From assembly GCA_964507185.1 (NCBI GenBank), contig CAZDOY010000007.1:39260-103259 (forward strand): a DNA stretch of 64,000 nucleotides, given 5' to 3'. Numbering within the stretch: position 1 is the stretch's first letter; each line of letters starts with the position of its first letter. The position numbers and the translations under genes are program-made. The stretch comes from an uncultured Thermoanaerobaculia bacterium (GTDB lineage: Bacteria > Acidobacteriota > UBA4820 > DSQY01). Positions 25,256 through 64,000 of this stretch are shown in pieces. The notes under the pieces were generated by a model, which was given only the letters and a program-made list of their open reading frames with translations, ran no database searches and was not told the origin of the DNA.

Positions 25256-25597
25256 TTAGGAGCCTCGGGGTCTGCGCGACTTGGGCTTTGCGGCGCGTTT
25301 GCCGGGCTCGTCCGCCTCGGGAGGTTGCGGGATGATGCCCTCCACCTGGTCGTAGGGCATCGGGATGACGTGGACCGAAACCAGGTCTCCCACGCGCCGT
25401 GCCGCGGCCGCCCCGGCGTCCGTGGCCGCCTTGACGGCGCCCACGTCCCCCCTGACCATCACCGTGACGTACGCGCTGCCGATGTATTCCTTGCCGACGA
25501 GGACCACCTTTGCGGCCTTCACCATGGCGTCGGCCGCCTCGATGGCCGCTACCAGCCCGCGCGTCTCGATCATGCCCAAGGCTTCCCGGTTAAGCAT
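25256..25597 (-). CDS. bacterial microcompartment shell protein, BMC-H (PduA/EutM/CcmK family, PF00936), 113 aa with basic C-terminal tail
   Basis: [70 protein letters not shown] is roughly 70-75% identical to PduA as I recall it. Confidence 0.9.
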
Positions 25598-50215: not shown

Positions 50216-52591
50216 TCAGCCCTTCTCTTCGATCGGTTCGCTGTACTTGCAGGCCTTTTCGGGGCACGCCTTGACCGGCCCGCTCTTCGTCTGGCGTTCG
50301 ATAAGATAGGGACTGCCGCAGGTGGGACAGGGCCCCGGCAGAGGTTTCGACCAGGAGATGAAGTCGCACTCAGGGTAGCCCGTACAGCCGTAGAAAAGCT
50401 TCCGCCTCTTGGTAAAGCGCTTGGCCAAGGGCTTTCCGCACTTGGGACACGGTGTTTCCACCGTCTCCTTCTGGATGTATTTGCAGGTAGGGTAGTTGGA
50501 ACACGCGACAAATGGGCCATAGCGGCCGTGCTTCTTCACGAGGTTCGAGCCGCATTCCGGGCATTTCTCTTCCAGGGGCTCGTCTTTGGCCACGACCACG
50601 CTGCCCGATTTGTCCTTTCGGATCTTCAGCGTGTATTTGCATTCGGGGTAACGCTCGCAGGCCAGAAATGCGCCGTAACGCCCCTGGCGTACCGCCATGG
50701 GGCTCCCGCACTTTTCACACGTTTTGGCGTCCTCGGGCACCTCGGGAGGCTTCTCGTCGGGCAGGGGGCGGGTTCCCTTGCATTCCGGGTAACCGGAACA
50801 GGCGAGAAAGCGTCCGAATCGGCCCATCTTGAGGACCATCGGGCGTCCGCACTTGTCGCAGACTTCGTCGGTCGCCTGGCCCTCCTTGCGGAGGTCCACC
50901 ATCTCACCCTTGGCCGCTTCGAGCTCCTTGTGGAAGTCCGTCCAGAACCGCTCCAGCAGTTTCTGCCGGTCCATGGCCCCGTTTTCGACTTTGTCGAGGT
51001 TCTCTTCCATGGCGGCCGTGTAACCGATGTCGAACAGCGCGGGGAAGTGCTTGATCAGGATCTGGCTGACCAGCATGCCCATGTCGGTGGGCACGAGGGC
51101 ACCCTTTTCCTTCTCCACGTAGGTTCGTTCCTGGATCGTCGAGATGATGGTCGCGTAGGTGGAGGGCCGTCCGATGCCGTTCTCCTCCAGGGCCTTCACG
51201 AGGGTCGCCTCGGTGTAGCGGGGGGGCGGCTCGGTGAACTTCTGCTCCGACTTGAGATCGAGCAGCGTCAGACTCTCGCCCTGTGTGAGGGGAGGTAACA
51301 CGCCCTTCTCGTCGTTTTCCTCGACCTCGTAGACCGCGAGGAACCCCTGGAAGCGGCAGACGGAGCCAGAGGCGCTGAACAGGGCGTCGCCGCACGCCGC
51401 CTGTACCTTCGTGGCGTCGAAAAGGGCGTCCGCCATCTGGCTCGCAACGAACCGTCGCCAGATCAATCGGTAAAGGGCGAACTCGTCGCGGCCCAGATAG
51501 GGTTTCACGCTTTCGGGCGTGCGTCCCGCATCGGTGGGGCGGATCGCCTCATGGGCGTCCTGAGCCGCCTTCTTCGGCGCGTACAAACGGGGCTTCGGAG
51601 GAAGGAAGTCTCCGCCGAAGGTTTCCTGCACGAACGCCCTGGCCGCATCCACCGCCTGGGGTGAGACGCGGGTCGAATCGGTCCTCATGTAGGTGATGAG
51701 TCCCACCGTCTCCCCTCCGGCCAGGTCGACGCCCTCATACAGGCGCTGGGCCACGGACATGGTCTTCTTCACCGGAAACTTCAGAAGCCTGGCCGCCTCC
51801 TGTTGCAGTTTGCTCGTGATGAAAGGCGGAGACGGGCTCTTCTTCTGCTTCTTCTTTTCCAGCTTCGCGACGGACCAGTCCCGGTCTTTCAGGTGCGCCA
51901 GCAACGCATCGTTTTCTTCCGCGTTGCGTATCTGCGACTTCTTGCCTTTCCACTGGGTGAGCCTGGCGTCGAAAGGCTTGGCCCGCCCACCTTCGCCGCA
52001 CAGCGAGGCGGTTACGGCCCAGTATTCTTCGGGTTGAAAGGCCCGGATGGTGTCCTCCCGCTCGCAGATCATCCTGAGGGCCACGGTCTGTACGCGTCCG
52101 GCCGACAGGCCCTTGCGCACCTTGTCCCAGAGCAACGGCGAAATCTGGTATCCGACGAGGCGGTCGATGATGCGGCGGGCGATCTGAGCGTTGACCTTCT
52201 GGGGGTCCACCTCTATGGGGTGGGCGACGGCGGCCTTGACCGCGGAAGAAGTAATCTCGTGAAAGAGGACGCGCTCGATGGGTTTGCCCATCTCTTTCAA
52301 GAGCTCTGAAAGGTGGTAGCAGATGGCCTCTCCTTCCCGGTCGGGGTCTGCCGCAAGGAGGATGGTGCCGGCTCTGGAGGCGGCCGTATGGATCTTGCTC
52401 ACGACGCTCTTCTTCGCGGGGAGAACGACGAAGGTGGGACGGAAATTCTTGTCCACGTCCACGGCCAGTTTATTGCCGGGAAGGTCTCGCACGTGCCCCA
52501 TGGAGGCCATGACGGAAAAGCCCTTGCCCAGGTATTTCTGTATGGCCCTTGCTTTGGCCGGCGATTCGACGATCAGGAGTGTGTCTGCCAT
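50216..52591 (-). CDS. topA: DNA topoisomerase I with multiple C-terminal C4 zinc ribbons
   Basis: MADTLLIVESPAKARAIQKYLGKGFSVMASMGHVRDLP... TOPRIM; repeated CxxC...CxxC ribbons at C-terminus. Confidence 0.9.
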   Translation of the reverse strand: MADTLLIVESPAKARAIQKYLGKGFSVMASMGHVRDLPGNKLAVDVDKNFRPTFVVLPAKKSVVSKIHTAASRAGTILLAADPDREGEAICYHLSELLKEMGKPIERVLFHEITSSAVKAAVAHPIEVDPQKVNAQIARRIIDRLVGYQISPLLWDKVRKGLSAGRVQTVALRMICEREDTIRAFQPEEYWAVTASLCGEGGRAKPFDARLTQWKGKKSQIRNAEENDALLAHLKDRDWSVAKLEKKKQKKSPSPPFITSKLQQEAARLLKFPVKKTMSVAQRLYEGVDLAGGETVGLITYMRTDSTRVSPQAVDAARAFVQETFGGDFLPPKPRLYAPKKAAQDAHEAIRPTDAGRTPESVKPYLGRDEFALYRLIWRRFVASQMADALFDATKVQAACGDALFSASGSVCRFQGFLAVYEVEENDEKGVLPPLTQGESLTLLDLKSEQKFTEPPPRYTEATLVKALEENGIGRPSTYATIISTIQERTYVEKEKGALVPTDMGMLVSQILIKHFPALFDIGYTAAMEENLDKVENGAMDRQKLLERFWTDFHKELEAAKGEMVDLRKEGQATDEVCDKCGRPMVLKMGRFGRFLACSGYPECKGTRPLPDEKPPEVPEDAKTCEKCGSPMAVRQGRYGAFLACERYPECKYTLKIRKDKSGSVVVAKDEPLEEKCPECGSNLVKKHGRYGPFVACSNYPTCKYIQKETVETPCPKCGKPLAKRFTKRRKLFYGCTGYPECDFISWSKPLPGPCPTCGSPYLIERQTKSGPVKACPEKACKYSEPIEEKG

Positions 52592-53703
52592 TCATTCGGC
52601 TCCTTGGGTGATGTCCTGCGGGCATACCGCGTACCGGGCAATTCTACACATAGCCCGGCCATTTGCAACTCGACAAGGACCGTGAGAATGTCCGGGGCGG
52701 ACAGGCCGGACTCGACGCTCAACCGGTCTATGCTCCTCCCCTCGTCCGCGCTCATCGCATCAAAGAGAACGCGCGCCTTGGCGGACAATGCCGAGTCTCC
52801 GCCCTCGGTCCCGGCGGGAATATCGTTAAGAGGTTTCAATCTGCAACATGTGTCTGGGGGAAATTCTTCCAGGACGTCGGCGACTTGCTGGACCAGCTTG
52901 GCACCCTTCTGAATAAGAGTATTCGGGCCTATGCCGGTACGGCTGGTGATGTTGTGAGGCACGGCGAAGACCTCTCGTCCCGTTTCAAGTGCGAAACGAG
53001 CAGTGACGAGAGACCCCGACTTTTCGGTCGCCTCGACGACCAGTACCCCTGAAGTCAGACCTGAAATAACGCGGTTTCGAACGGGAAAATTCCTCGGAAG
53101 GGGCGGCGTCCCAGGCGGGTACTCGCTGATGATCGCCCCGCCCCTGTCCAGGATATTCTGCATAAGCCCATCGTTTTCAGGCGGATATATTCTGTCTATA
53201 CCCGTGCCCAGGACGGCGGCCGCGTGTCCTTCGACTGCCAGGGAACCCTGATGGGCGGCCGTGTCAATACCGCGCGCCAGACCGCTCACGACTGCCATTC
53301 CGGCGTACACGAGTTCCTTCGCCAGCGTCCTTGCGACGTTCTGACCGTAGACGGTGCACAGCCGGGATCCGACCACCGCGATCGCGGGCAGGGAGAAAAC
53401 CTCCAGGGACCCCTTAACGTACAGCGCGGGCGGGGGATCGGGCAGACTGCGGAGAGACTCCGGATAGCCGGGATCGTCCCATGAAAGGATGGTAACGCCC
53501 TCCTTTTCCGCCGCTCGATCCGCTTCTTCGGCGCCCTCCCAGTCCAGTTTGGCAAGCGACTTGCTTATGTTGGGGTGTAGTTTCACGGGGCGGGCGCCTT
53601 CCCTGAGGGAACGAAGCAAGGCCTTCTTCCCGAGCAGTTCGGCCCTGAGGACGGTCGATAGGGATGTCAAGCGCGTCAGGGCGCTGTAAAGATAAGGTTC
53701 CAC
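52573..53703 (-). CDS. dprA: DNA processing protein A (Smf)
   Basis: ...AVVGSRLCTVYGQNVARTLAKELVYAGMAVVSGLARGIDTAAHQGSL... Rossmann-like DprA domain; conserved dprA-topA linkage. Confidence 0.85.
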   Translation of the reverse strand: MEPYLYSALTRLTSLSTVLRAELLGKKALLRSLREGARPVKLHPNISKSLAKLDWEGAEEADRAAEKEGVTILSWDDPGYPESLRSLPDPPPALYVKGSLEVFSLPAIAVVGSRLCTVYGQNVARTLAKELVYAGMAVVSGLARGIDTAAHQGSLAVEGHAAAVLGTGIDRIYPPENDGLMQNILDRGGAIISEYPPGTPPLPRNFPVRNRVISGLTSGVLVVEATEKSGSLVTARFALETGREVFAVPHNITSRTGIGPNTLIQKGAKLVQQVADVLEEFPPDTCCRLKPLNDIPAGTEGGDSALSAKARVLFDAMSADEGRSIDRLSVESGLSAPDILTVLVELQMAGLCVELPGTRYARRTSPKEPNEWQTHS

Positions 53704-53788
53704 TCTGGCTCCAAGCGACGAAAAGGCAAGAATCTATAACACATGAAATGAACCAAGGCAATCATCATCACTACATGGGGAATGCAAA

Positions 53789-54376
53789 ATGGTATCGAGA
53801 TCTTATTTTGAACAGACGGCTCTGGTTCACATCGACTTCCTGTACAACCTGGCCCTCAAGATAACCCGCAACGAGGACGACGCCCAGGACCTGGTGCAGG
53901 AGACCTACCTGCGTGCCTATCGCTTCTTCGACAAGTACGAGCCCGGGACAAACTGCAAGGCCTGGCTCTACCGTATCATGAAAAATACCTTTATCAACCA
54001 CTACAGGAAACAGCACCGCAGACCGAGTGAGGTGGACTTCGATTCCATCGAGGAGACGCAGGAATCTCACGTTCGGTCGGATAGTTCATGGCCCCAGAAT
54101 CCGGAACAGACGCTGATAAATTCGATCATCCGCGAGGACGTTCGAAACGCCTTCCTCCAGTTGCCCCAGGGATATCGTGAAGCTCTGGCACTGTCCCTGT
54201 TGGGAGGTAAGTCCTACAAGGAGATCGCGGACATGATGGACTGCCCCATCGGAACCATCATGTCGCGCATCCACCGCGCCCGCAAACTCATGCAGAAGCA
54301 ACTGACGGAGCACGCCGAGGAAAAGAGCTGGGTCGTACCGTCCGAAGCCACCCAACAGCTCGCCCAGGGCGCGTAG
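53789..54376 (+). CDS. ECF RNA polymerase sigma factor (SigR/RpoE-like)
   Basis: ...DAQDLVQETYLRAYRFFDKYEPGTNCKAWLYRIMKNTFINHYRK... and ...KSYKEIADMMDCPIGTIMSRIHRARKLM. Confidence 0.85.
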   Translation: MVSRSYFEQTALVHIDFLYNLALKITRNEDDAQDLVQETYLRAYRFFDKYEPGTNCKAWLYRIMKNTFINHYRKQHRRPSEVDFDSIEETQESHVRSDSSWPQNPEQTLINSIIREDVRNAFLQLPQGYREALALSLLGGKSYKEIADMMDCPIGTIMSRIHRARKLMQKQLTEHAEEKSWVVPSEATQQLAQGA

Positions 54377-54468
54377 ATCTTGCTCGTTCGGGACGACTCG
54401 TTCTCGGTTCGATCCGGGCAGCAGGTCTAAATCACCCAGCACGAACCCGAAAGAACGTATCAGAAATT

Positions 54469-54519
54469 AATCGGGCCCTCCCAGGGTTACATTCGGAAGG
54501 AGGGCCCGATTTGTTTTTT
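54469..54519 (+). terminator. strong hairpin plus T-run between ECF sigma gene and its ZAS anti-sigma gene (terminator/attenuator)
   Basis: atcgggccctcc-N17-ggagggcccgat followed by ttgttttttt. Confidence 0.5.
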
Positions 54520-54528
54520 TCGGGCGAA

Positions 54529-54846
54529 ATGGGTGGCGACGTGGATTGCGTAAGAGTCAGGGCGCTCTTGCCCCTGGTTGTAGCGGATAGGATAAAAGGG
54601 AACCGGTTGCAGAAGATCCGGGAGCACCTCTCTTTCTGCCTCCCGTGCCGCCGCGCCTACGAGGCGCGCAGGCGGCTTCACAGTTCCGTGTCCACGAGCC
54701 TGTCTGGCTCCAAGGCCGCGCCCGGCCAGCTTAAGGAATCCATCAGGGCGTGCATGGACTGTATGGACAACCCGGGCAAGAGGGTGTGTCCGAGGCTGCG
54801 CTTCAAAGTGCGGCTTGTTACGCCTCCTCCCGATGATCTAAAATAG
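54529..54846 (+). CDS. soluble zinc-finger (zf-HC2/ZAS) anti-sigma factor, RsrA/ChrR-N-like (105 aa)
   Basis: MGGDVDCVRVRALLPLVVADRIKGNRLQKIREHLSFCLPCRRAYEA (C...H-x3-C-x2-C); no TM; track start at 54511 lies inside the terminator T-run. Confidence 0.55.
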   Translation: MGGDVDCVRVRALLPLVVADRIKGNRLQKIREHLSFCLPCRRAYEARRRLHSSVSTSLSGSKAAPGQLKESIRACMDCMDNPGKRVCPRLRFKVRLVTPPPDDLK

Positions 54847-54936
54847 CGTCCGTTTGGCGCCAAAGGCAGAAAACAGGCCCGTTCCAGGTGGAAATGGGAA
54901 TTCAGTCTGAGGGCGAGCCCCTTGAGGAGTCGATAG

Positions 54937-55455
54937 ATGAAGAAAACCATGACAAAGGTACTCACCGTTCTTCTCGTGCTTGCGAGCGTAATGGTCCTGA
55001 CACCGGTCCTGGCCGGGACGGACGTGGGTGAGCCGGCCACCAACTTTACGCTGCAGCAGATCAACGGTGGGAAGAAGGTCACCCTCTCGCAACTCAAGGG
55101 GAAGCCTACTCTCGTCGTCTTCTGGGCTACCTGGTGCCCGCCCTGCCGGCGGGAGATTCCCCTTCTGAAGAAACTGGATAAAGAGTACGGCCCCAAAGGC
55201 CTGCAAATCGTCGCACTGGCGCTCAACTACCGGGAGACGCAGGACGTGGTCGCCAAGTTCATCAAAGATCACGAACTGCCGTACACGGTTCTCTGGGACG
55301 AGGACAACAAGACGGCCGATGCCTATTCCGTCACGGGCATACCGACGGCCGTCCTCGTGGATGCGAACGGCGTGATCCGCTTCAGGGGGCACCAGCTAGA
55401 AGATCCCGCTTTCATGGGGCTCCTGAAGGACTACACATCCTCCAAGGCCTCCTGA
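54937..55455 (+). CDS. TlpA/ResA-like periplasmic thiol:disulfide oxidoreductase (thioredoxin fold)
   Basis: signal peptide; ...TLVVFWATWCPPCRREIPLL... Confidence 0.8.
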   Translation: MKKTMTKVLTVLLVLASVMVLTPVLAGTDVGEPATNFTLQQINGGKKVTLSQLKGKPTLVVFWATWCPPCRREIPLLKKLDKEYGPKGLQIVALALNYRETQDVVAKFIKDHELPYTVLWDEDNKTADAYSVTGIPTAVLVDANGVIRFRGHQLEDPAFMGLLKDYTSSKAS

Positions 55456-55483
55456 TCGAGGCGCCGCCCCGCACGGTATAGAA

Positions 55484-55514
55484 GGCCCGGCCCTGATGGG
55501 ACCGGGCCTTTTCA
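55484..55514 (+). terminator. rho-independent terminator after tlpA-like gene
   Basis: ggcccggccctgatgggaccgggcc then ttttca. Confidence 0.5.
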
Positions 55515-55517
55515 TCG

Positions 55518-57857
55518 TCACCGGCGCGGCGGGGGAAGCCAGCTCCCGTTTCTCATCCTGTAAACCATTGGACGTCGCGACGGCCAGGCTACGAGAAGAG
55601 CGCCGTCGCGATCTGTCCTGAAAATCGACGATCCAATCCTGATGTAGCGTTGGAGTACGCTCTGGGCCGGGTGGCCGAACCGGTTGGCGCGTCCCACGGA
55701 GAAGAAAGCTGCGCGCGGCGAAGAGGCCTGTACCCAGGGCGGGGTGCTGGAGGTGGCCGAGCCGTGATGTGGAACGATTTCGCCGAATACGGGCCGGATC
55801 AGCCCCCCTTCCAGGATGTGGCGTTCGGCGTCCGCCTCGATGTCCCCCGTCACAAGGAACGTGCGGCCGCCCTCACGAATCCGGGCCACCAGGCATCGGT
55901 CGTTCTCGCTGCTCTCCGGCCTGTCGGGGTCGGGATGCAGGATCTCCGCTCTGAAAGCTCCTACCCTCAAGGTGTCGGACGTCCTGAGAGGAATGAGTGA
56001 CACGCCCTCTGACCTCGCCGTTCGGGCGATGAACCCGGGCAGTCCGCGTGACGGGGGATCGGTCGCCGGGTAAGCAACGAATCCGACGTCCAGATCCCTC
56101 AGAAGATCCGGGGTCGCTCCCGAATGGTCCGAATCCCAGTGGGTGAGTACGATACCGTCTACGCGGCGGCGCCCGGCGGCGGCGAGGAAAGGCTCGATCA
56201 CCGTCCGGGCCGAAGAGGTCCCTCTCATCATCGGTGTGCCCGCATCGAAGAGAATCGTCCGTCCGTCCCGGCAGAAGACCTGGCAGGAAGCCTCGCCGAC
56301 GTCGAGGACGACCACGGAGGGATCGGGCAGGCGGGGCCGGAGCCACGGTAGCGTCCATGCGCCGACGACCGCAACGGTCGCGAGGACCCACCCCGCACGT
56401 CTCCGCCTTCCCGGCACGGCCAGCGCGCACAGTCCCGCGACGAAGAGCACGGTCCACACCAGGGCTGGACGGGGAATGAAGATCGAGCCCCACCCGGCCG
56501 CCCCCAACCGGGTGGGGAGAACCATGAATATGCGGGCCGACAGGGCCAGTCCCTTGCCCAACACCTGGTGAACGCCGGGGACGAAGGCGAGCCCCAGGAT
56601 GTATGGCAGTCCGAGAACCTGAATGGCCATGATGGGCACGGACGCCAGGGGCGTTGCCAGCCAGCCCAGCGGGGAGATCCTGTGGAAGTCCAGGGCGAGA
56701 ATGGGCAGGGTCGACAGCTGGGCCGAGAAACCGACCCAGAGAAGGCGGGTGATCCACCCGGCTGCCCCTTCCATGGCGAAGTGTGCGGGCATGGCGTTCC
56801 AGAGTCCGATGATGCCCAGTGTGGCTGCAAAGGTGAGCTGGAAGCCGGTGTCGAGGATCCACGCGGGGTTCCAGATGAGAAGCGCGGCCAGCGAAACGCT
56901 CCAGGCGTAGAGCGCGCCCTGGGGTCTGGCCAGCAGGCAGGCTGCCAGGAATATCCCGGCCATGAACAGAGCCCTGACGAGAGATGGGCTTGCCGAGGCG
57001 AGGAGCCCGTAGACGATCAAGAGGCAGAGGCCCGAGACGTCCCTCCAGGCCGGCGGGATGCCGGCCAGGTGCGCCACCAGCGCCAGAAGAACCAGCAGGA
57101 GGCCCACGTGCAGGCCGGAAAGCGCCACCAGATGAAAGAGGCCGGACCGGCTCAGGGCGTCGCGCTGGCCCGTCGTGAGAAGGCCCCTTTCCCCGAGAAG
57201 GACCGCCAGCAGGAGTCCGCTGTCCGCGCCCGCGTCCGACCGCAACCGTCTCTCCAGGACGTGCCGGTAGGCGGAGAAGGGGTGGGGCAGGGAGGCGCGA
57301 CCAATTCGTACGAGCCGGGGGCTCCGACACCCGGCGGTCAAAAGGATGCCCTTGCGCCGCAGGTAGGCGCGGCGGTCGAATTCGCCCGGGTTCTGCGGCC
57401 CCCGCGGGCGCTGAAGCCGGAGGCTCGCCTCCACGGAAACGCCGGCAACGGGAGGTCGGATGGGCAGGTAGGCCCGAACCAGCGCATTGCACGCGCGCCA
57501 GGCGTCTGCGGTTTCGAAAGACGTCAGCCGGAGAAGACAACGGGATCCGTCCGGCCAGGGTTCGGAGTGGAGAACGCGCCCTCTCACCCACGCGTAGACC
57601 GGCACGCCGGACCGGGCCACACTGTCGACCAGCGGATCGGGCCGCGCGGCGTGACGTCCGACGTTGCCGACGGCCAGCCCGGCCAGGATGGCGCAGACAG
57701 GCAAGACCCGGAGCAGCCGCTTCCGGCGGGCCGCGAAAGCACCCAGCAGGCAGGCGCACAGCCCCCATCCGACGGAGGCTGAAATCCACGCCGAGAGTCC
57801 GATTCCGGCCGCGAAGGCCGAAAGGAGGAGCGGCCGGGATATGGTCCGGTTAGTCAT
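55518..57857 (-). CDS. comEC: DNA internalization-related competence protein ComEC/Rec2 (competence domain plus metallo-beta-lactamase domain)
   Basis: multi-TM competence domain; C-term ...VLDVGEASCQVFCRDGRTILFDAG...IVLTHWDSDHSGA... MBL fold. Confidence 0.85.
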   Translation of the reverse strand: MTNRTISRPLLLSAFAAGIGLSAWISASVGWGLCACLLGAFAARRKRLLRVLPVCAILAGLAVGNVGRHAARPDPLVDSVARSGVPVYAWVRGRVLHSEPWPDGSRCLLRLTSFETADAWRACNALVRAYLPIRPPVAGVSVEASLRLQRPRGPQNPGEFDRRAYLRRKGILLTAGCRSPRLVRIGRASLPHPFSAYRHVLERRLRSDAGADSGLLLAVLLGERGLLTTGQRDALSRSGLFHLVALSGLHVGLLLVLLALVAHLAGIPPAWRDVSGLCLLIVYGLLASASPSLVRALFMAGIFLAACLLARPQGALYAWSVSLAALLIWNPAWILDTGFQLTFAATLGIIGLWNAMPAHFAMEGAAGWITRLLWVGFSAQLSTLPILALDFHRISPLGWLATPLASVPIMAIQVLGLPYILGLAFVPGVHQVLGKGLALSARIFMVLPTRLGAAGWGSIFIPRPALVWTVLFVAGLCALAVPGRRRRAGWVLATVAVVGAWTLPWLRPRLPDPSVVVLDVGEASCQVFCRDGRTILFDAGTPMMRGTSSARTVIEPFLAAAGRRRVDGIVLTHWDSDHSGATPDLLRDLDVGFVAYPATDPPSRGLPGFIARTARSEGVSLIPLRTSDTLRVGAFRAEILHPDPDRPESSENDRCLVARIREGGRTFLVTGDIEADAERHILEGGLIRPVFGEIVPHHGSATSSTPPWVQASSPRAAFFSVGRANRFGHPAQSVLQRYIRIGSSIFRTDRDGALLVAWPSRRPMVYRMRNGSWLPPPRR

Positions 57858-57946
57858 GGCCCAACCTTACCGAGGGGTGACGATCAGCCTGGCGGGCGCA
57901 ACGGGTTCGGCCGGATCCGCTGCGGGGCCCTCCGCAAACGAAAGAG

Positions 57947-57988
57947 GCCTTTCCCCGGCTCCGGACGTCGAATCCCGGGGAAAGGCCA
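57947..57988 (-). terminator. 13-bp perfect-stem hairpin downstream of the Sec-thioredoxin/TPR gene (candidate terminator)
   Basis: ggcctttccccgg-N16-ccggggaaaggcc; on minus strand followed by ucuuucguuug. Confidence 0.4.
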
Positions 57989-58019
57989 TCAGATTTACCG
58001 TTCCTGGAATCTTCCCGGA

Positions 58020-59093
58020 TCAGCCCTTCGTGCCTCCGCCATGCATCTTAAGGAACTTGGCGCGCTGTCCCATGAGGTACTTGTCCTCCGGTTTCTGTTT
58101 GAGGGCCCTGTCGATGGTCGCGACGGCCTCGTCCTTGTTGCCCAGCTTGTAGTAGACCTCGGCCAGCGTGTCCAGGATACCCGGGTCGTCGTGGCTGATC
58201 GCGACGGCCTTGCGGGCCGCCTCGGCGGCCTTGTCCAGCTCGAGGCCCTGTTCGGCGCAGTGCCAGGCGTAGTCGTTGAGGAACCCCGGATCGTCCTGGC
58301 GGTTGGGCATGGCGGCGTGGTACAGACCGAGGTAGTCCGACTCGGCCTGCTTTTTCGCCTGGGCGTCCGCGGCGTGCTTGATCGCACCGCGATAGTAGCG
58401 CGAGAGCGATGAAAAGGCTTCCTCCGAGGCGTCCGATTTCCCCCCCTGGGCGAGCTTACTCAAAACTTCGACGCCCTTGGGCGGGTCCGTACTCAGGAGG
58501 GCCTCGCCGCGGATGAGCGCCAGCGACGTTTCCAGCTTGGCGTCGCTCTTCTTGTCGGCGGTCCGGGCCTTGTCCACCCAGGCCAGGGCCTCCTTGGCGT
58601 CGCCCCTGTCAAGATATTTCTGCGCGATATCCCGGCGGATGTCCGGTCCCGCGTCGGCCGCCGAGCGGCTTACCAGGTCGCCGAGGGTGTCGACGCCGTA
58701 GGTGTAGGCGAGGAGGGTGCGCATCCAGTCGGACCTGTTGTCGTATCCTATGATGCGGTCTATTTCCTCGCCCTTGGGCGAGATGACGATTGTCGTGGGA
58801 ATGCCCTTCACGTGGTAGGCCTTGGCGAGGGCCTGCACCTCGGGTTTGTCCACGTTCTGGCGGATCATGACGTTTGACTGCGAAAGACGACTGACCATCG
58901 ATGGCGTAAGGACTTCACGGTCCAGTTTTTGGCAGGACCCTCACCAGTCGGCGTAAAACTTCAGGATGAGATTGTCATCCTTGGCCTTAGCCTCGGCCTT
59001 CGCCTGGTCGAACGTGCCCTTGTACCAACCCGTCCCGGCGGCCATCAGGCCGATGGGCAGGGCGAGCAAGAGGGCGGCAAGAAATTTTTTCAT
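58020..59093 (-). CDS. periplasmic thioredoxin-fold + TPR protein with in-frame UGA at first position of CxxC (candidate selenoprotein, UxxC), about 357 aa
   Basis: Minus-strand reading from ATG 59093: MKKFLAALLLALPIGLMAAGTGWYKGTFDQAKAEAKAKDDNLILKFYADW-TGA-GSCQKLDREVLTPSMVSRLSQSNVMIRQNVDKPEVQALAKAYHVKGIPTTIVISPKGEEIDRIIGY... continuous frame across TGA at 58941-58943; GAGGAGG SD; hairpin ggtcc-N11-ggacc immediately 3' of UGA. Confidence 0.6.
58919..58940 (-). ncRNA. candidate SECIS-like hairpin immediately downstream of in-frame UGA
   Basis: UGA-g-GGUCC-ugccaaaaacu-GGACC on the mRNA strand. Confidence 0.3.
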
Positions 59094-59218
59094 GGAACCC
59101 TCCTCACGGTGAAGTACAAAGATTTACCACAAATAGACGCTGGAAGCCAGTTCGGGAGGGAGGGGGGACGATTTGGGATTTGAAAGGCGGCTCGAGGCGG
59201 GTCTTCGGAGGGCGACGT

Positions 59219-60979
59219 CTAATCCCCTGCTTCCGGCAAAACGATCGCAAAGCCCGCTCCGCCCAGTTCGGACTCTACGGCCTCCAACCCGCCGCCGTGC
59301 TCGCGGATGATCTTGCGGGCTATGGCGAGACCGAGCCCCGTCCCTCCGGGCTTCTGGCTGGTGAAAGGCGTAAAGAGGTTCTGGCGGACTTCCGCGTCGA
59401 GCCCGGGGCCGTTATCTTCCACCGTGATGGTCACGCGCTTCTCCGCACTCCGCGCGGAGAACCTCACTCGGCCGGAGCCATCGTCGGAAGCACCCGAAGC
59501 TTCCAAGGCGTTCCGCGCCAGATTCCGGATGGCCCGTCCGAGCGTCTCCCAGTCCGCTTCCACGGTCAGGTCCTCAGGACAGTCCACCTCCACGGAAACC
59601 TCCGGCCACTCGTGCCCGGCCATCTCCGCTTCCTCCCTCAGCAGGTCCGCCAGCCTGCACGTCTCCCGGACGACGGGCAGGGGACGGGCGAAGAAGAGGA
59701 GGTTGTTCACGACCTGCGCGAGGCGCTCGGCCTCCTCGCGGAGGCCGGTGAAGTGCCTCTCGTCCAAAAGGGCTGGCACGTCCTGTTCCAGCAATTTGAG
59801 GTGGGCGGTCATCGTATTGAGGCTGTTCCGGACCTCGTGGGCCACGCCCGCGGCCACCTCCCCCAGGCGCGTCAGGGCTTCCCGTTCCACGAGGGTCCTC
59901 TGCATCGTGTAGACCTCGGTCTGGTCGCGGAGGATGAGCAGGTAGCCTCGTAACTGGTGGAGAAGGTTGTATAGGGGGATGCCTACGACCTGGAGGAGCG
60001 TACCCGGTGCCCCGGGCACCTCTTCCTTGAGGGCCAGCGCCCTGCTCTGCCTCACTTCCTGCAGGGCCGCCAGGGCCTCGGGGCGCACCCCGAGCAGGCC
60101 CATGCCGGTGTCGCCCAGACGCGGGACCTCCGTAAGCCCGAGTAGCCTCCGGGCGGCGGCATTGACGCCGACGAGCCGGTCCTCGTTGTCGAACCGGAGG
60201 TATCCCGCCTCGAGATTCGCGCAGAGCGCTTCCGCCATGCCCTCCACGTCCTCGGCCCGCTGTCTCTCCCGCCTGTGGGCGGCCTCCAGTTCCCCGGTCC
60301 TCTCCCTGAGCTCGGCCAGCGTTTTCTGAAAGAGCGCCACCAACTGCTGGGTGGAGTCTCCCCCCGGGCCCGAAGGAAGGACTTCTCCCGCCTCCACCAG
60401 GACCCGCTCGACCCCTCGGCGGGATCGCACCAGCTTGAGGCCCAGCCAGAAAAGGAAGGTCAGAAGCGCCAGCCCCGCCGCGGATACCATGGCCGCCGCA
60501 AGGGCGAAATGCGCCTGTACGCGTGCGAAACCTGGGGCGTCAAAGACGATGACGAGCCGCCTCCTGTCGGCAAAAGTGCGCGTGTACACCAGGCCCCCGC
60601 GGCTTGCGGTCACAGAGTCCCCTCCCGTCGGCGGTGCGTAGGTCTTCGGTGGAGGCGCGAAAGGAGGGGCGGACCAGAGGACGTGATCGCCGAGGAGGAT
60701 GGCGGCCTGCCTCGGCTTCACCGCCGCGCCCTGGGGCGGCCTGCCGCCGTAGAGAGCTTCGTCCAGGCTCTCACCCCTCTGCGGGATGGGCCTGTGCTCG
60801 ATGCGCGCCACCGCCGCGCGCCCCCCCGCGAGCACCGCCCCGCGAACGGACCTTCTCTGGGCGCCCTGGTACCTGGCGAGGGCCGCCAGGCTCCACAACG
60901 CCGTCAGGAGCAGGAGCGCGCAGAGTGCGGCCAAGGCCAACGTGAGACCCTTCTTCAGGCGGTCCCGTTGTGAGTTCAT
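59219..60979 (-). CDS. sensor histidine kinase (periplasmic sensing domain, PAS, HisKA, HATPase_c), 586 aa
   Basis: MNSQRDRLKKGLTLALAALCALLLLTALW (TM1) ... second TM ... LGEVAAGVAHEVRNSLNTM (H-box) ... VEDNGPGLDAEVRQNLFTPFTSQKPGGTGLGLAIARKII (G1/G2); ATGA overlap with pilD. Confidence 0.8.
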   Translation of the reverse strand: MNSQRDRLKKGLTLALAALCALLLLTALWSLAALARYQGAQRRSVRGAVLAGGRAAVARIEHRPIPQRGESLDEALYGGRPPQGAAVKPRQAAILLGDHVLWSAPPFAPPPKTYAPPTGGDSVTASRGGLVYTRTFADRRRLVIVFDAPGFARVQAHFALAAAMVSAAGLALLTFLFWLGLKLVRSRRGVERVLVEAGEVLPSGPGGDSTQQLVALFQKTLAELRERTGELEAAHRRERQRAEDVEGMAEALCANLEAGYLRFDNEDRLVGVNAAARRLLGLTEVPRLGDTGMGLLGVRPEALAALQEVRQSRALALKEEVPGAPGTLLQVVGIPLYNLLHQLRGYLLILRDQTEVYTMQRTLVEREALTRLGEVAAGVAHEVRNSLNTMTAHLKLLEQDVPALLDERHFTGLREEAERLAQVVNNLLFFARPLPVVRETCRLADLLREEAEMAGHEWPEVSVEVDCPEDLTVEADWETLGRAIRNLARNALEASGASDDGSGRVRFSARSAEKRVTITVEDNGPGLDAEVRQNLFTPFTSQKPGGTGLGLAIARKIIREHGGGLEAVESELGGAGFAIVLPEAGD

Positions 60980-61755
60980 GGCCCGACCTTGAAGAAAAGG
61001 CCCGCGTACCACGTCCACAGGGCTGGAGCCCAGAAAAGGGCCGCGAGAGCGGCCGCGCACAGGAAGGTCCCGAAGGGCAGCGGCGTCCTTCGCCCCTTTC
61101 CGGACATGAGAAGGTAGGTGCCGCCGATGACGGTGCCGAGAATGGCGCCGCCCAGAAGCGTCATGAGCATGCCCTGCCAGCCCAGGAAAGCGCCGATCAT
61201 GGCCAGGAGCTTCACGTCTCCCCAGCCCATGGCTTCGATGCCGAAGAGGGCGTAGACGCCTATCACCGCGGCAGGCAGGCCGGCGCCTGCGGCCGCCCCC
61301 GCCACGGATTGCCACGGGGTCGTCCACGAGAGAAAGGGCGACAGGGCCAGGCCGATCAGGATGCCTGGATACGTCAGCTTGTCCGGCAGGATCTGGTGTT
61401 CGAGGTCGATCAGGCCGAGCGGAAGGCAGAATAGAGAGAAAAGACAACCCGCAAGCGCATCAACACTGAGGCCCCAGAGCAGAAATGAGGCTAGGAACAG
61501 TCCGCCCATGGCGGCTTCGACGAGGGGATACCGCACGCTGATCGGGTAGGAGCACCGGGCGCAGCGCCCCCGCAGCACCACCCAGGAAAGGATCGGCACA
61601 TTGAGGTACCAGGGAATGGCCTCGCCGCAATGCGGGCAGTGCGAGCCGGGATAGACGACGGACTCGCGGATGGGGAGCCTGTAGATGAGCACGTTGGCGA
61701 AGGACCCCGCCACGAGCCCAAGGGCGGCGGCGAAAACCGCAAAGATGATTACCAT
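60976..61755 (-). CDS. pilD: prepilin peptidase / N-methyltransferase (A24 family)
   Basis: ...GSFANVLIYRLPIRESVVYPGSHCPHCGEAIPWYLNVPILSWVVLRGRCARC... (zinc-binding CxxC...CxxC) and peptidase domain. Confidence 0.85.
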   Translation of the reverse strand: MVIIFAVFAAALGLVAGSFANVLIYRLPIRESVVYPGSHCPHCGEAIPWYLNVPILSWVVLRGRCARCSYPISVRYPLVEAAMGGLFLASFLLWGLSVDALAGCLFSLFCLPLGLIDLEHQILPDKLTYPGILIGLALSPFLSWTTPWQSVAGAAAGAGLPAAVIGVYALFGIEAMGWGDVKLLAMIGAFLGWQGMLMTLLGGAILGTVIGGTYLLMSGKGRRTPLPFGTFLCAAALAALFWAPALWTWYAGLFFKVGP

Positions 61756-62618
61756 TCCGCGTACTTCCCCTTAAACTTGTAAGGAGTAATGCTCCACACC
61801 CTTCCGGTTTTCGGATCGTAGCCGTAGGAATGACCGGCGGGGTCCCTGGGGAGTTTCTCGAGAAAGCCGGCTTCCACCAGTCCTCGGAGGCTGTCGGGGA
61901 ATTGGCCCTTGGCCCTCTTATAGGCGAAGATCGCGGTCTTCAACGCGCGCAGGTCGATTTTGATGGTCAGGTCCCAGATGTTCCGTTCGGCGGCCATCAC
62001 GAAAAACCTCGACTGGTCGTTGTTCTGGTTCTCGTGCTCCTTCTTCACGTTTTCCCAGTAGTGCAATGAGACCCTGTAGTCGCCCCGATACTTGTAAGCG
62101 TTGGCGACGAGGTCCTTGAGCATGGAATTCCCTGGGTTCCGGCGAAGAGCGGTGGTGAAGAACTTCAGCGCCATCGGGTAGTTCTTCGCCTGGAAGAAGG
62201 CGTACGTGCCGGCATCCCAGGCGATGAGCCAGTTCTTCGGATTCTTAGCCAGGCCCTTGTCGGCAAGCTTGTAGATGAGATCCCACCGCTTGTCCAGGGA
62301 CAGGAAAAGGTCCCCGAATATGTAGGCCTCGTAAAAACGAGGGTCCAGGTCCGTAATGACGTCGAATGTGTGGAAAAGGTACTCGTCTCGCACAGAGCTT
62401 CCGTACCGGTCGAAATACTGGACCGACCATATGAAGATGAGGTCCGCCCAGAAGTCCTCCTGCCCGAGGCTCACCATCTTCATGTATCCGCTGGATGGGA
62501 CGTAGTAGGACCTGAACTCGGTCGGATAAGTCTGATAAATCGCCGCCATGTCCTGGTGGAGCGGCACGACCGCCACCATGAGAAGGACCAGGATCAGTAT
62601 GCCGGCGAGAATCTTCAC
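61749..62618 (-). CDS. hypothetical N-terminally anchored protein with helical-repeat (TPR-like) domain; possible PilG analogue
   Basis: GTG 62618 VKILAGILILVLLMVAVVPL (single TM) then soluble domain ...LAKNPKNWLIAWDAGTYAFFQAKNYPMALKFFTTALRRNPGN...; upstream 92 codons of track ORF are Arg/His-rich artefact. Confidence 0.45.
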   Translation of the reverse strand: MKILAGILILVLLMVAVVPLHQDMAAIYQTYPTEFRSYYVPSSGYMKMVSLGQEDFWADLIFIWSVQYFDRYGSSVRDEYLFHTFDVITDLDPRFYEAYIFGDLFLSLDKRWDLIYKLADKGLAKNPKNWLIAWDAGTYAFFQAKNYPMALKFFTTALRRNPGNSMLKDLVANAYKYRGDYRVSLHYWENVKKEHENQNNDQSRFFVMAAERNIWDLTIKIDLRALKTAIFAYKRAKGQFPDSLRGLVEAGFLEKLPRDPAGHSYGYDPKTGRVWSITPYKFKGKYAEW

Positions 62619-62620
62619 GG

Positions 62621-63409
62621 CTACACCAGGTCGCGGCGCTTGAATGCCAGGCCCGCAGCCAGGAGGAGGATGGATACCATGAGGCCCGTGTAAAGCACGG
62701 CGCGCCACGTGAAACCCGCCGCCACCGGTATGTTGTAAGCGACGAGGTTGTTGATGTTCAGCATGTTCAGGTCCGGCAGCAAGTGGTAGACGATCAGGAT
62801 GGCCCTCTTGCCGAAATCGGACGTGACGTTGGGAAGCAAGACGTTCGGCAGGGCCGAACTCGTATGGCCGATGAGGTAGAAGGCGATGGTGCACAAGGCG
62901 CTCACCACCGGCGACGTGATGGACGAAAAGAAGAGGGCCACGGCCGTCAGGATCATAAGCTCGAGATAGATGAAGAAAGCCGCTTCGAATATGCGGGGGG
63001 TGAATCCCCCGACGAATACCAGCACGGCCGAAAGGACCGCCATCATGGCCATGAGATTAACCAGGAGGACGCTCATCAGGCCCAGGCACCGGCCCACGAG
63101 GAAGTGGCTCCTAGGAAGCGGCTTGGACAGGATGTTGTAGATGGTCTTTTTCTCGATCTCCTGGTAGACGAGACCGATGCCCACGAATATGGCGGTCATG
63201 GCAGAAAAATAGGAGATCGTGGACAGCCCGACGTCGAGCACCACCTTTCGGACCGTGCCCACGGCCAGAAAACCAAGGACGTAGGAAAAGAGGAGCAGGC
63301 AGATCGCGAAGGCAAGGAGGATGTAGAAAATCCGACTGCGCACCGCCTCCTTGAAGGTGTTCTTGCCGATGGCGTAGACCTGGGCGTACATGAGCACGGG
63401 GTTCGTCAT
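62621..63409 (-). CDS. ABC-2 family transporter permease (6 TM)
   Basis: [51 protein letters not shown]... typical ABC-2 permease. Confidence 0.75.
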   Translation of the reverse strand: MTNPVLMYAQVYAIGKNTFKEAVRSRIFYILLAFAICLLLFSYVLGFLAVGTVRKVVLDVGLSTISYFSAMTAIFVGIGLVYQEIEKKTIYNILSKPLPRSHFLVGRCLGLMSVLLVNLMAMMAVLSAVLVFVGGFTPRIFEAAFFIYLELMILTAVALFFSSITSPVVSALCTIAFYLIGHTSSALPNVLLPNVTSDFGKRAILIVYHLLPDLNMLNINNLVAYNIPVAAGFTWRAVLYTGLMVSILLLAAGLAFKRRDLV

Positions 63410-64000
63410 GAGGGGCGCTCTCCCTGCAACTGGGCCATAAACAGGTCTTCCAGTGACGACTTGTGCGGAACGACGGCGCGGATGCCGGCCTTGGCCTCCC
63501 GCGCCGCGTCAAGCACCCTCTCCAGGGACTTTTCATCCTCGACGCGAAGGAGCACCTGTGTATCCTGCTGCACGAGCACCGAGCACCCCTCCGGCACCTG
63601 GAAGCCGCGGCCGACCCTCAGGGTCACGTCCCAGAAATCGATCTCGGAGCCCAGGAGCTTGTCCAGGGTTCCCTCCTTGACCACCTGACCTTGCATGAGT
63701 ATGGCCACTTCGTCGCAGATTGATTCGGCGTCGGAGAGAATGTGGGACGAGAAGAAGACCGTCTTGCCCTTGGCCTTCAGGTCGAGGATCAGGTCCCGCA
63801 TCTCCCGTCGGCCCACGGGGTCGAGCCCGCTGACGGGCTCGTCGAGGATCACGAGCTCGGGGTCGTTGATCAGCGCCTGCGCAAGGCCTATGCGCTGCAG
63901 CATCCCCTTGCTGTACTTCCTGAGCTGGACCGAGCCCTTGTTTTCCAGGCCCACAGATTTCAGGAGTTCCTCCGACCTGTCGGCCAACTCTGCCTTGGGT
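63406..64000 (-). CDS. ABC transporter ATP-binding protein (N-terminus beyond window end)
   Basis: ...[64 protein letters not shown]... signature/Walker B/H-loop; frame stays open to position 64000. Confidence 0.8.

Follow-up and report, generated by a model that had tools for sequence, protein, structure and literature searches.

A candidate selenoprotein gene of Acidobacteriota that joins a thioredoxin-like domain to tetratricopeptide repeats

An in-frame TGA in the active site of a thioredoxin-TPR protein

The window analysed here is a stretch of 64,000 nucleotides (64 kb) from an uncultured Thermoanaerobaculia bacterium of the phylum Acidobacteriota (GenBank assembly GCA_964507185.1, contig CAZDOY010000007.1, positions 39,260 to 103,259). 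Its minus strand carries a frame of 357 codons, from ATG 59093-59091 to TGA 58022-58020, whose sole interruption is an in-frame TGA at codon 51 (58943-58941). The translation reads MKKF...FYADW, the TGA, GSCQKLDREVLTPS and then M (58898) onward; LKFYADW stands before the TGA, and the residues straight after it read GSCQKLDREVLTPSM. The open reading frame (ORF) listing breaks this gene in two, a 50-aa ORF (58941-59093) and a 292-aa ORF (58020-58898). A sequence-only reading of the stretch had joined the pieces into one secreted protein with a thioredoxin (Trx) fold and tetratricopeptide repeats (TPR), and had proposed selenocysteine (Sec) at the UGA; the single frame across the TGA and the GAGGAGG motif ahead of ATG 59093 are present where it had placed them. 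We consider it highly likely that the locus forms one gene, whose exported product of ~357 residues is composed of a signal peptide, a DsbD-gamma/Trx-like domain with the motif W-U-G-S-C (Sec at UGA 58943-58941) and a C-terminal TPR domain.

A protein search returned ~30 homologs annotated at 276-297 aa with ~80% query cover, and a few full-length ones with WC..C. At the DNA level, each of five truncated homologs (39-57% identity) consisted of a 50-aa ORF, a TGA and the remainder in frame. Scanning GTDB with one genome for each species yielded 19 orthologous loci (18 new), which all lie in metagenome-assembled genomes (MAGs) of Acidobacteriota, including Thermoanaerobaculia and Aminicenantes. 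The non-redundant set of TGA-containing (Sec-form) orthologs comprises 23 sequences (22 loci plus the window), down to 39% identity; the whole Sec-form set comprises 34 orthologous Acidobacteriota loci beyond the window, or 28 distinct sequences with the window's included. TGA occupied the codon that lines up with the first CxxC cysteine in 23/23 non-redundant orthologs and in nine metagenome loci, and TAA or TAG never did.

Cysteine takes this position in relatives of the gene. Two orthologs of the same synteny encode Cys (TGC) at the position of codon 51, namely L089/L095 (CSSC) and L093 (CSWC), and distant homologs in other phyla carry TGC or TGT there; L026, L028, L090 and P0031-37 have one of these two codons. 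The proposal that UGA stands in for the first CxxC cysteine thus agrees with the alignment, in which every Sec-form ortholog has TGA and the syntenic and distant Cys forms have a Cys codon. A library-wide census with a Cys ortholog added dozens of full-length Trx-TPR representatives (~340-380 aa, 28-35% identity) and more truncated ones too. At ~30% identity and in different neighbourhoods, the loci L091:2773-3891 and L092:1595-2644 again show TGA in frame where the first Cys of CxxC would be, within the motifs DFYTDW-TGA-SWC and DFYAAW-TGA-GGC; since these two distant clades also have TGA at the codon, the Sec form is present in at least three divergent clades. Both distant proteins begin with lipoprotein-type signal peptides (lipoboxes LVGC and FSSC). 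In both cases the annotation wrongly gives a truncated TPR protein.

Upstream of the TGA, conserved residues (e.g. L9, P13, G26, A31, A35) use various synonymous codons, which argues that this region is translated. When 2,577 TGA codons with open flanks in the window and 24 related loci were screened without bias, the screen recovered the codon 51 site in all 23 Sec-form sequences as the sole protein-like cluster conserved on both sides; the other clusters were discarded as off-frame, low-complexity artefacts. Within the 64-kb window we found no convincing other TGA-split gene. Six of nine Pfam-supported neighbouring genes (this gene counted) terminate in TGA, indicating that the codon is a normal stop here and is not reassigned genome-wide.

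Domain searches were run on the sequence with Cys in place of the codon 51 TGA. Pfam Thioredoxin (PF00085) matched residues 35-122 with 47 bits (cutoff 23.5), and the catalytic domain therefore straddles the TGA. Thioredoxin_7 covered residues 23-106 (PF13899, 44 bits, above cutoff), Thioredoxin_2 (PF13098) scored 38.9 bits (cutoff 27), and TPR_2, TPR_19 and TPR_14 matched residues 285-346. The Trx-plus-TPR composition that had been read from the letters is thereby borne out, and the proline of its GIPT motif (Pro99) is invariant. No NCBIfam model, dedicated selenoprotein models included, reached its own cutoff; local matches went to the C-terminal periplasmic domain of DsbD (PRK00293, positions 466-569; 50.7 bits vs cutoff 330), the equivalent C-terminal domain of selenoprotein TsoB (NF045694, positions 451-552; 50.9 bits vs 805) and thioredoxin (TIGR01068; 45 bits vs 96.8). 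Sequence matches in the PDB were to thioredoxins, PDI domains and DsbD-gamma.

For a structural view we used an AlphaFold2 model of a natural Cys ortholog (P0005, 53% identical to the window protein). The model (mean predicted local distance difference test score 93.5; predicted template modelling score 0.87) has the beta-alpha-beta Trx topology and, C-terminal to it, 13 consecutive helices over residues 124-335. Its top whole-chain Foldseek matches were YbbN/CnoX (3QOU, E = 2.6e-8) and the Salmonella structure 3QDN (7e-7), and its Trx domain superposed on DsbD-gamma, DsbH and thioredoxins with target-normalised template modelling (TM) scores of 0.66-0.80 (0.64-0.80 across thioredoxin-fold chains). 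The dipeptide of W-U-G-x-C and the Ile-cisPro pair resemble reductase-type Trx proteins, unlike DsbA-type oxidases. At the N-terminus, MKKFLAALLLALPIGLMAAG combines a basic n-region, a ~16-residue hydrophobic core and a small residue at the end, a signal-peptide form from which export may be predicted. The dipeptide and Ile-cisPro, together with the signal peptide or lipoboxes, suggest an envelope reductase or isomerase with a client-recruiting TPR domain; a reductase or isomerase is the most likely activity.

A frozen block downstream of the UGA

Constraint at the RNA level begins at the UGA itself. Counting from its U, the 23 orthologs, AT-rich ones included, agree completely at 30 of the first 39 columns. 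Synonymous-codon entropy over codons 52-63 is 0.19 of expected, as compared to 0.79 in all other codons (Mann-Whitney p = 2e-5), and no sliding window of the gene scores lower. Minority codons are fixed here: Lys56 is AAA in 23/23 (23% usage gene-wide) and Arg59 is CGT in 23/23 (12% usage).

The best candidate for a selenocysteine insertion sequence (SECIS) within this block is a minihairpin, hairpin A, with a 4-bp stem and a 6-nt loop that places G26 U27 (G at loop position 2) in a loop 21 nt past the UGA, in 23/23 orthologs. RNAalifold gave hairpin A as its only consensus helix, and it is the only helix with a consistent mean pair probability across orthologs (0.43); its energy lies between -4.5 and -4.8 kcal/mol in 23/23. 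In the SECIS of E. coli fdhF, the essential loop bases G23 U24 lie one codon nearer the UGA than G26 U27 do here. The bSECIS model calls for a loop of 3-9 nt, an upper stem of 4-16 bp, G at loop position 1 or 2, a UGA-to-loop distance of 16-37 nt and a minimum free energy (MFE) of -7.5 kcal/mol or below (PMC13188914 Fig. 2), and hairpin A satisfies the loop, stem, loop-G and spacing rules. Nine further metagenome Sec forms carry the identical element, with no stem variants. In the distant Sec clades the sequences are unrelated, and each permits a hairpin whose loop starts at +20 or +23.

The Cys orthologs bear on the element in opposite ways. In L093, CTT GAC AAA GAG GTA replaces the Sec-form CTG/TTG GAC CGT GAN GTC, so that four hairpin positions invariant in all Sec forms and the last loop base are altered and hairpin A is destroyed, while the peptide still reads KKLDKEVL. 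In the Cys lineage L089/L095 (L089:5001-6035; 52% protein identity), the 33 nt after codon 52 are identical to the window; the block differs solely at codon 52 (GGG to AGC) and hairpin A is intact. This latter block looks like a 'fossil SECIS' left by a recent Sec-to-Cys switch, and SECIS-like remnants are kept in close Cys relatives of other selenoprotein families (PMC13582414). Taken together, we regard the frozen block as a probable SECIS, with hairpin A as its probable core.

Other pairings were tried and rejected. The sequence-only reading had put the bacterial SECIS at a hairpin GGUCC...GGACC that starts 1 nt after the UGA. Such a hairpin, of 5 bp with an 11-nt loop, does exist and is part of the window's MFE fold; its assignment as the SECIS fails. 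It reaches -8.3 kcal/mol in just four sequences, the window's among them, and +1.9 in L010, and the full 5 bp as well as the middle U-A pair form in 4/23 orthologs. Beginning 1 nt after the UGA, it would also be expected to sit inside the ribosomal mRNA channel while the UGA is in the A site. Its 11-nt loop, 6 nt past the UGA, contrasts with the 3-9 nt and 16-37 nt of the consensus bSECIS model (PMC13188914). A pairing of +4-10 with +29-35, in which 83% of cells pair and columns 9/30 give a covariation hint, has an 18-nt loop, falls within the ribosome footprint and excludes hairpin A. Hairpin B (CGUGA[NGUCC]UNACG, +25-29/+35-39), with an fdhF-like GUC loop, is worth -0.5 to -3.2 kcal/mol and is mismatched in 10/23, and for a lower stem joining +5-10 to +38-43 just 42% of cells pair.

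Table 1. Coordinates of the features at the thioredoxin-TPR locus, in window positions.
Feature	Position	Strand	Basis
Read-through coding sequence, proposed Sec codon 51 included	58020..59093	-	Frame read directly; likewise continuous in all orthologs
Shine-Dalgarno motif GAGGAGG, 5 nt spacer to ATG 59093	59099..59105	-	Read directly
Signal-peptide-like N-terminus MKKFLAALLLALPIGLMAAG	59034..59093	-	Sequence; pattern conserved in all orthologs
In-frame TGA, codon 51, proposed selenocysteine codon, aligned with first Cys of CxxC	58941..58943	-	Ortholog alignment
Redox motif U-G-S-C (family form W-U-G-[S/G/A]-C)	58932..58943	-	Sequence and alignment
ATG taken by ORF callers as the 292-aa start, internal Met66	58896..58898	-	Poorly conserved, without Shine-Dalgarno motif
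Ultra-conserved block +1 to +39, proposed SECIS region	58905..58943	-	UGA GGG NNN UGC NAN AAA CUG GAC CGU GAN GUC CUN ACG
Hairpin A, GGAC[CGUGAA]GUCC, best SECIS candidate, +21 to +34	58910..58923	-	RNAalifold consensus
Hairpin GGUCC(11 nt)GGACC of the sequence-only reading, +5 to +25, lineage-specific	58919..58939	-	Window MFE fold
Thioredoxin-fold domain, residues 35-122	58728..58991	-	Pfam, NCBIfam local matches, PDB matches, AlphaFold2 and Foldseek
cis-Pro motif G-I-P99-T	58797-58799	-	Invariant among orthologs
All-helical TPR-like domain, ~residues 137-350	58044..58685	-	Pfam TPR and AlphaFold2 model
Intrinsic-terminator-like hairpin, 13-bp GC-rich stem GGCCUUUCCCCGG/CCGGGGAAAGGCC, then UCUUUCGUUU	57936..57987	-	~30 nt past the gene stop

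Weighing the readings of the UGA and the block

Several results weigh against Sec insertion directed by hairpin A. The hairpin alone, at ~-4.7 kcal/mol, misses the bSECIS threshold of -7.5; a 45-nt context reaches that value in 21/23, yet through non-conserved pairings. Hairpin A was not separable from shuffled sequences, and in the window's own thermodynamic ensemble its pair probability is 0.01-0.06, beaten by the GGUCC...GGACC hairpin. Its stem bases are invariant in all 28 distinct Sec-form sequences, giving zero covariation support; covariation therefore cannot choose among pairings, and the same invariant bases allow alternative ones. Since the Cys lineage L089/L095 keeps the element, its tie to Sec decoding is not exclusive. 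Rfam returned nothing relevant, either at the gathering threshold over the whole window or at E <= 10 over 58800-59000. With respect to the decoding machinery, ARAGORN detected no tRNA of any kind, tRNA-Sec included, in the 64-kb window or the 23 loci, and E. coli SelA, SelB and SelD, used as tblastn queries on the window and ~400 kb of orthologous flanks, matched only generic GTPases at unrelated loci. Neither the window nor the same ~400 kb of flanks yielded a further selenoprotein gene. While the data show a continuous conserved frame, the Sec/Cys correspondence, the constraint on the RNA after the UGA and the domain architecture, on the protein side export, the redox direction and the clients are, like Sec insertion and the identity of the SECIS, what we infer rather than observe.

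These points feed into the alternatives. Instead of a SECIS, the frozen 36-nt block might be an mRNA structure with a regulatory role, a site bound by a protein or a weak antisense terminator. Invariance without covariation is unusual for SECIS elements, hairpin A leaves the conserved G6, A18 and G39 unexplained, L089/L095 holds the block unchanged, and on the plus strand a terminator consensus scan flags GGACTTCACGGTCC plus AGTTTTTGG at 58910-58932. Against this, an intrinsic terminator would need a stronger stem than one of 4-5 bp, and the plus strand has no gene ending close by; the plus-strand terminator look of the hairpin and A-run is probably coincidental, and may add to the conservation of the A-rich spacer. 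The block also starts precisely at the UGA and has decayed in L093 despite the conserved peptide, and remnants of the L089/L095 kind are documented in close Cys forms of other selenoprotein families (PMC13582414), leaving a function other than SECIS unlikely. A different possibility accepts the element and reassigns its product, with the UGA decoded as Cys or another standard residue by a SelB-dependent tRNA(Cys) (selC*/tRNA-ReC) or by near-cognate read-through. Such tRNAs are reported to decode UGA as Cys given a downstream SECIS and are known from several uncultured phyla (PMC13582414, PMC7609411); the window holds nothing that separates Sec from Cys at codon 51, and the Cys lineage that retains the downstream element fits this idea as well. 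Were the product plain Cys, however, it would be hard to see why at least 28 distinct sequences strictly keep UGA instead of TGC/TGT; the selC* mechanism likewise needs the Sec apparatus (SelB, SECIS), and neither a selC*-type tRNA nor any other tRNA occurs in the window or flanks. We consider decoding as Cys or another standard residue quite improbable.

Were the UGA a true stop, the locus would hold a gene for a 50-aa secreted peptide and an independent 292-aa TPR gene starting at ATG 58898, which is how gene callers split it in every database entry, under the GenBank name 'tetratricopeptide repeat protein'. This division, which the sequence-only reading had put forward as its own possible refutation, is contradicted by what we found. 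The N-terminal 50 residues include a signal peptide and the strand and helix with which the Trx domain opens, and a true stop would cut that domain through its active site. Without exception the stop is an in-frame TGA, and the Cys orthologs are continuous. The 14 codons from the TGA to Met66 are conserved as protein, nearly invariant among the orthologs; Met66 itself is kept in 11/23 and is V, T, N or L in the other 12, and ATG 58898 is preceded by no comparable purine-rich Shine-Dalgarno motif. A true stop is accordingly very improbable. Nothing but the interrupted frame speaks for a sequencing or assembly error or a pseudogene, against which stand the identical TGA in more than 30 independent assemblies from various studies and sequencing platforms and purifying selection on both flanks, rendering the probability of this explanation negligible.

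Under the preferred reading, Sec insertion at the UGA, a SelB-Sec-tRNA(Sec) complex would be recruited by an RNA element within the invariant block (+1 to +39), the core of which would most likely be the minihairpin GGAC[CGUGAN]GUCC at +21 to +34, and the ribosome would place Sec at the UGA rather than terminate. The product would be a selenol/thiol-disulfide oxidoreductase of the cell envelope, with client proteins bound by its TPR domain; these clients might, speculatively and judging from the gene neighbourhood, be found among type IV pilus or competence proteins. The phylum does include Sec users, a support that comes from the literature and applies at phylum level: three selenoprotein families with four proteins were listed for Acidobacteria (PMC1794560 Table 2), Occallatibacter riparius has three selenoprotein genes (PMC12013277 Table 2), and Sec-type hydrogenases were found in Acidobacteriota MAGs (PMC13582414).

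Relation to known selenoproteins and gene neighbourhood

Two listed selenoprotein families come nearest. With one, the Sec-thioredoxins (UxxC, PF00085), the window protein shares the Trx fold, Sec (here proposed) in place of the N-terminal Cys of CxxC, the W-U-G-x-C context, the cis-Pro and a UGA followed by a coding-region SECIS, here putative. An experimentally verified example is the Trx of Treponema denticola (PMC13188914 Table 1). Whereas Sec-thioredoxins are small, cytoplasmic and single-domain, the window protein adds a signal peptide and a ~220-residue TPR domain. The other comprises the PF13098 'Thiol:disulfide interchange protein' selenoproteins (PMC13188914 Table 1; PMC1794560), also predicted extracytoplasmic Trx-like oxidoreductases with UxxC; that family (representative WP_011366075.1), compared by description only, has no TPR in its catalogue entry and was described from Deltaproteobacteria, not Acidobacteriota. 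The gamma domain of DsbD and the C-terminal domain of TsoB are the best local matches among hidden Markov models, with an FYADWC-type motif and a periplasmic location in common, and DsbD-gamma-type structures (1VRS, 2FWE, 4IP1) give target-normalised TM scores of 0.68-0.74 to the Trx domain model. The window protein nevertheless falls outside DsbD, as it lacks both the DsbD membrane domain and the N-terminal alpha domain, and TsoB is a rhodanese/DsbD-fusion selenoprotein with its Sec residues in another motif, UxxxxU.

CnoX/YbbN (3QOU, 3QDN) provides the only solved structures built as an N-terminal Trx domain followed by TPR, and in one database source a homolog bears the YbbN-type label 'thioredoxin-like negative regulator of GroEL'. 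Unlike the window protein, CnoX/YbbN chaperedoxins belong to the cytoplasm and lack a signal peptide. They share 14-16% identity with the protein, and the poor global superposition (TM 0.25-0.34, root-mean-square deviation ~24 A) indicates that the domain arrangement differs. The window protein is thus not CnoX/YbbN; the likeness is one of architecture only, that of an extracytoplasmic counterpart. E. coli YbbN carries SxxC instead of a redox-active CxxC, and we know of no Sec forms of CnoX. The four-residue string U-G-S-C recurs in the UGSC-containing selenoprotein family NF041046, which is absent among the NCBIfam matches at E <= 0.01, placing the window protein outside it. The Trx7/PDZ (seleno)protein NF041199 similarly joins a Thioredoxin_7-type domain to a protein-binding domain; it scored 15 bits against a cutoff of 300 and has Sec in the CxxU position, and the window protein is not a member.

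No TPR or tetratricopeptide entry was found in the most recent inventory of 119 prokaryotic selenoprotein families, in BSepDB or in deep-Sep, and a literature search combining Aminicenantes and selenocysteine yielded nothing useful. The Trx-TPR family is therefore uncatalogued so far as the catalogue families, compared by description, allow one to say; it may have been listed earlier under a generic Trx-like name. In all likelihood, we are dealing with a selenoprotein gene of familiar type (Trx fold, UxxC) in a new domain context and lineage, with an unusually invariant putative SECIS. A bolder interpretation, which we offer tentatively and hold to be rather doubtful as a whole, is that of an uncatalogued selenoprotein family of extracytoplasmic, 'chaperedoxin-like' Trx-TPR proteins, nearly always in the Sec form within a large Acidobacteriota clade (Thermoanaerobaculia, Aminicenantes and others) and equipped with an atypical, sequence-invariant minimal SECIS; this SECIS, with GGG directly after the UGA, an A-rich spacer and a hairpin of 4 bp as its parts, would form a distinct bacterial class read by a lineage-specific SelB.

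If Sec is indeed inserted, dozens of ~290-aa 'tetratricopeptide repeat protein' entries would be truncated versions of ~355-aa selenoproteins, lacking the catalytic domain and due for re-annotation. The bacterial selenoprotein inventory would gain an exported two-domain Trx-TPR protein, and the selenoproteome of Acidobacteriota, an abundant and poorly cultured phylum, would widen. The frozen 36-nt block would offer a natural test case for a minimal bacterial SECIS, with Cys orthologs that have or lack the block as controls. Current understanding would not be overturned by any of this, which would rather be a solid incremental addition.

In the core clade the gene lies in a syntenic block (window 50216-63987; L001, L003-L006, L089, L093) that spans Acidobacteriota classes. 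It starts with an ATP-binding cassette (ABC) ATPase, an ABC-2 permease and a TPR-like protein of ~290 aa, continues with an A24 prepilin peptidase, an orphan histidine kinase, the Trx-TPR gene and ComEC, and extends beyond ComEC to a secreted TlpA/AhpC-TSA-like WCPPC protein on the opposite strand, an extracytoplasmic function (ECF) sigma factor, DprA and TopA. In several orthologs the Trx-TPR gene starts 8-40 nt after the kinase gene, suggesting co-transcription with the kinase. At its other end, the 93-nt segment 57930-58022, which includes the terminator-like hairpin, folds at -43.7 kcal/mol (z = -3.3; 0/200 shuffles as stable). The terminator consensus scan had missed this hairpin (57936-57987) because its loop is longer than 8 nt. 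Such a strong terminator-like structure suggests that the gene is the last of its transcription unit and that comEC belongs to another.

The gene order hints at a tie to type IV filament or competence functions, and if Sec insertion is real, the conserved location, with the prepilin peptidase/histidine kinase operon on one side and comEC on the other, suggests that the biogenesis of pili or of the DNA-uptake apparatus includes a redox step. Competence in Bacillus requires thiol-disulfide oxidoreductases for the disulfides of ComGC and ComEC, making such a role a reasonable, though tentative, idea. The distant Sec clades have other neighbours.

Just past comEC, at 54937-55455 on the plus strand, the window encodes a secreted AhpC-TSA/Redoxin/Thioredoxin_8 protein with a signal peptide and WATWCPPC, of the Cys-type TlpA/ResA-like kind, and its position is conserved in the orthologous loci; with the Trx-TPR gene on the other side, two envelope thiol oxidoreductases thus flank comEC. 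In L001, a T2SSE/PilB-type ATPase is also nearby. Unrelated to the Trx-TPR gene, a 113-aa ORF at 25256-25597 on the minus strand encodes a microcompartment shell protein (Pfam BMC, 95 bits), and a microcompartment locus may lie partly within the window.

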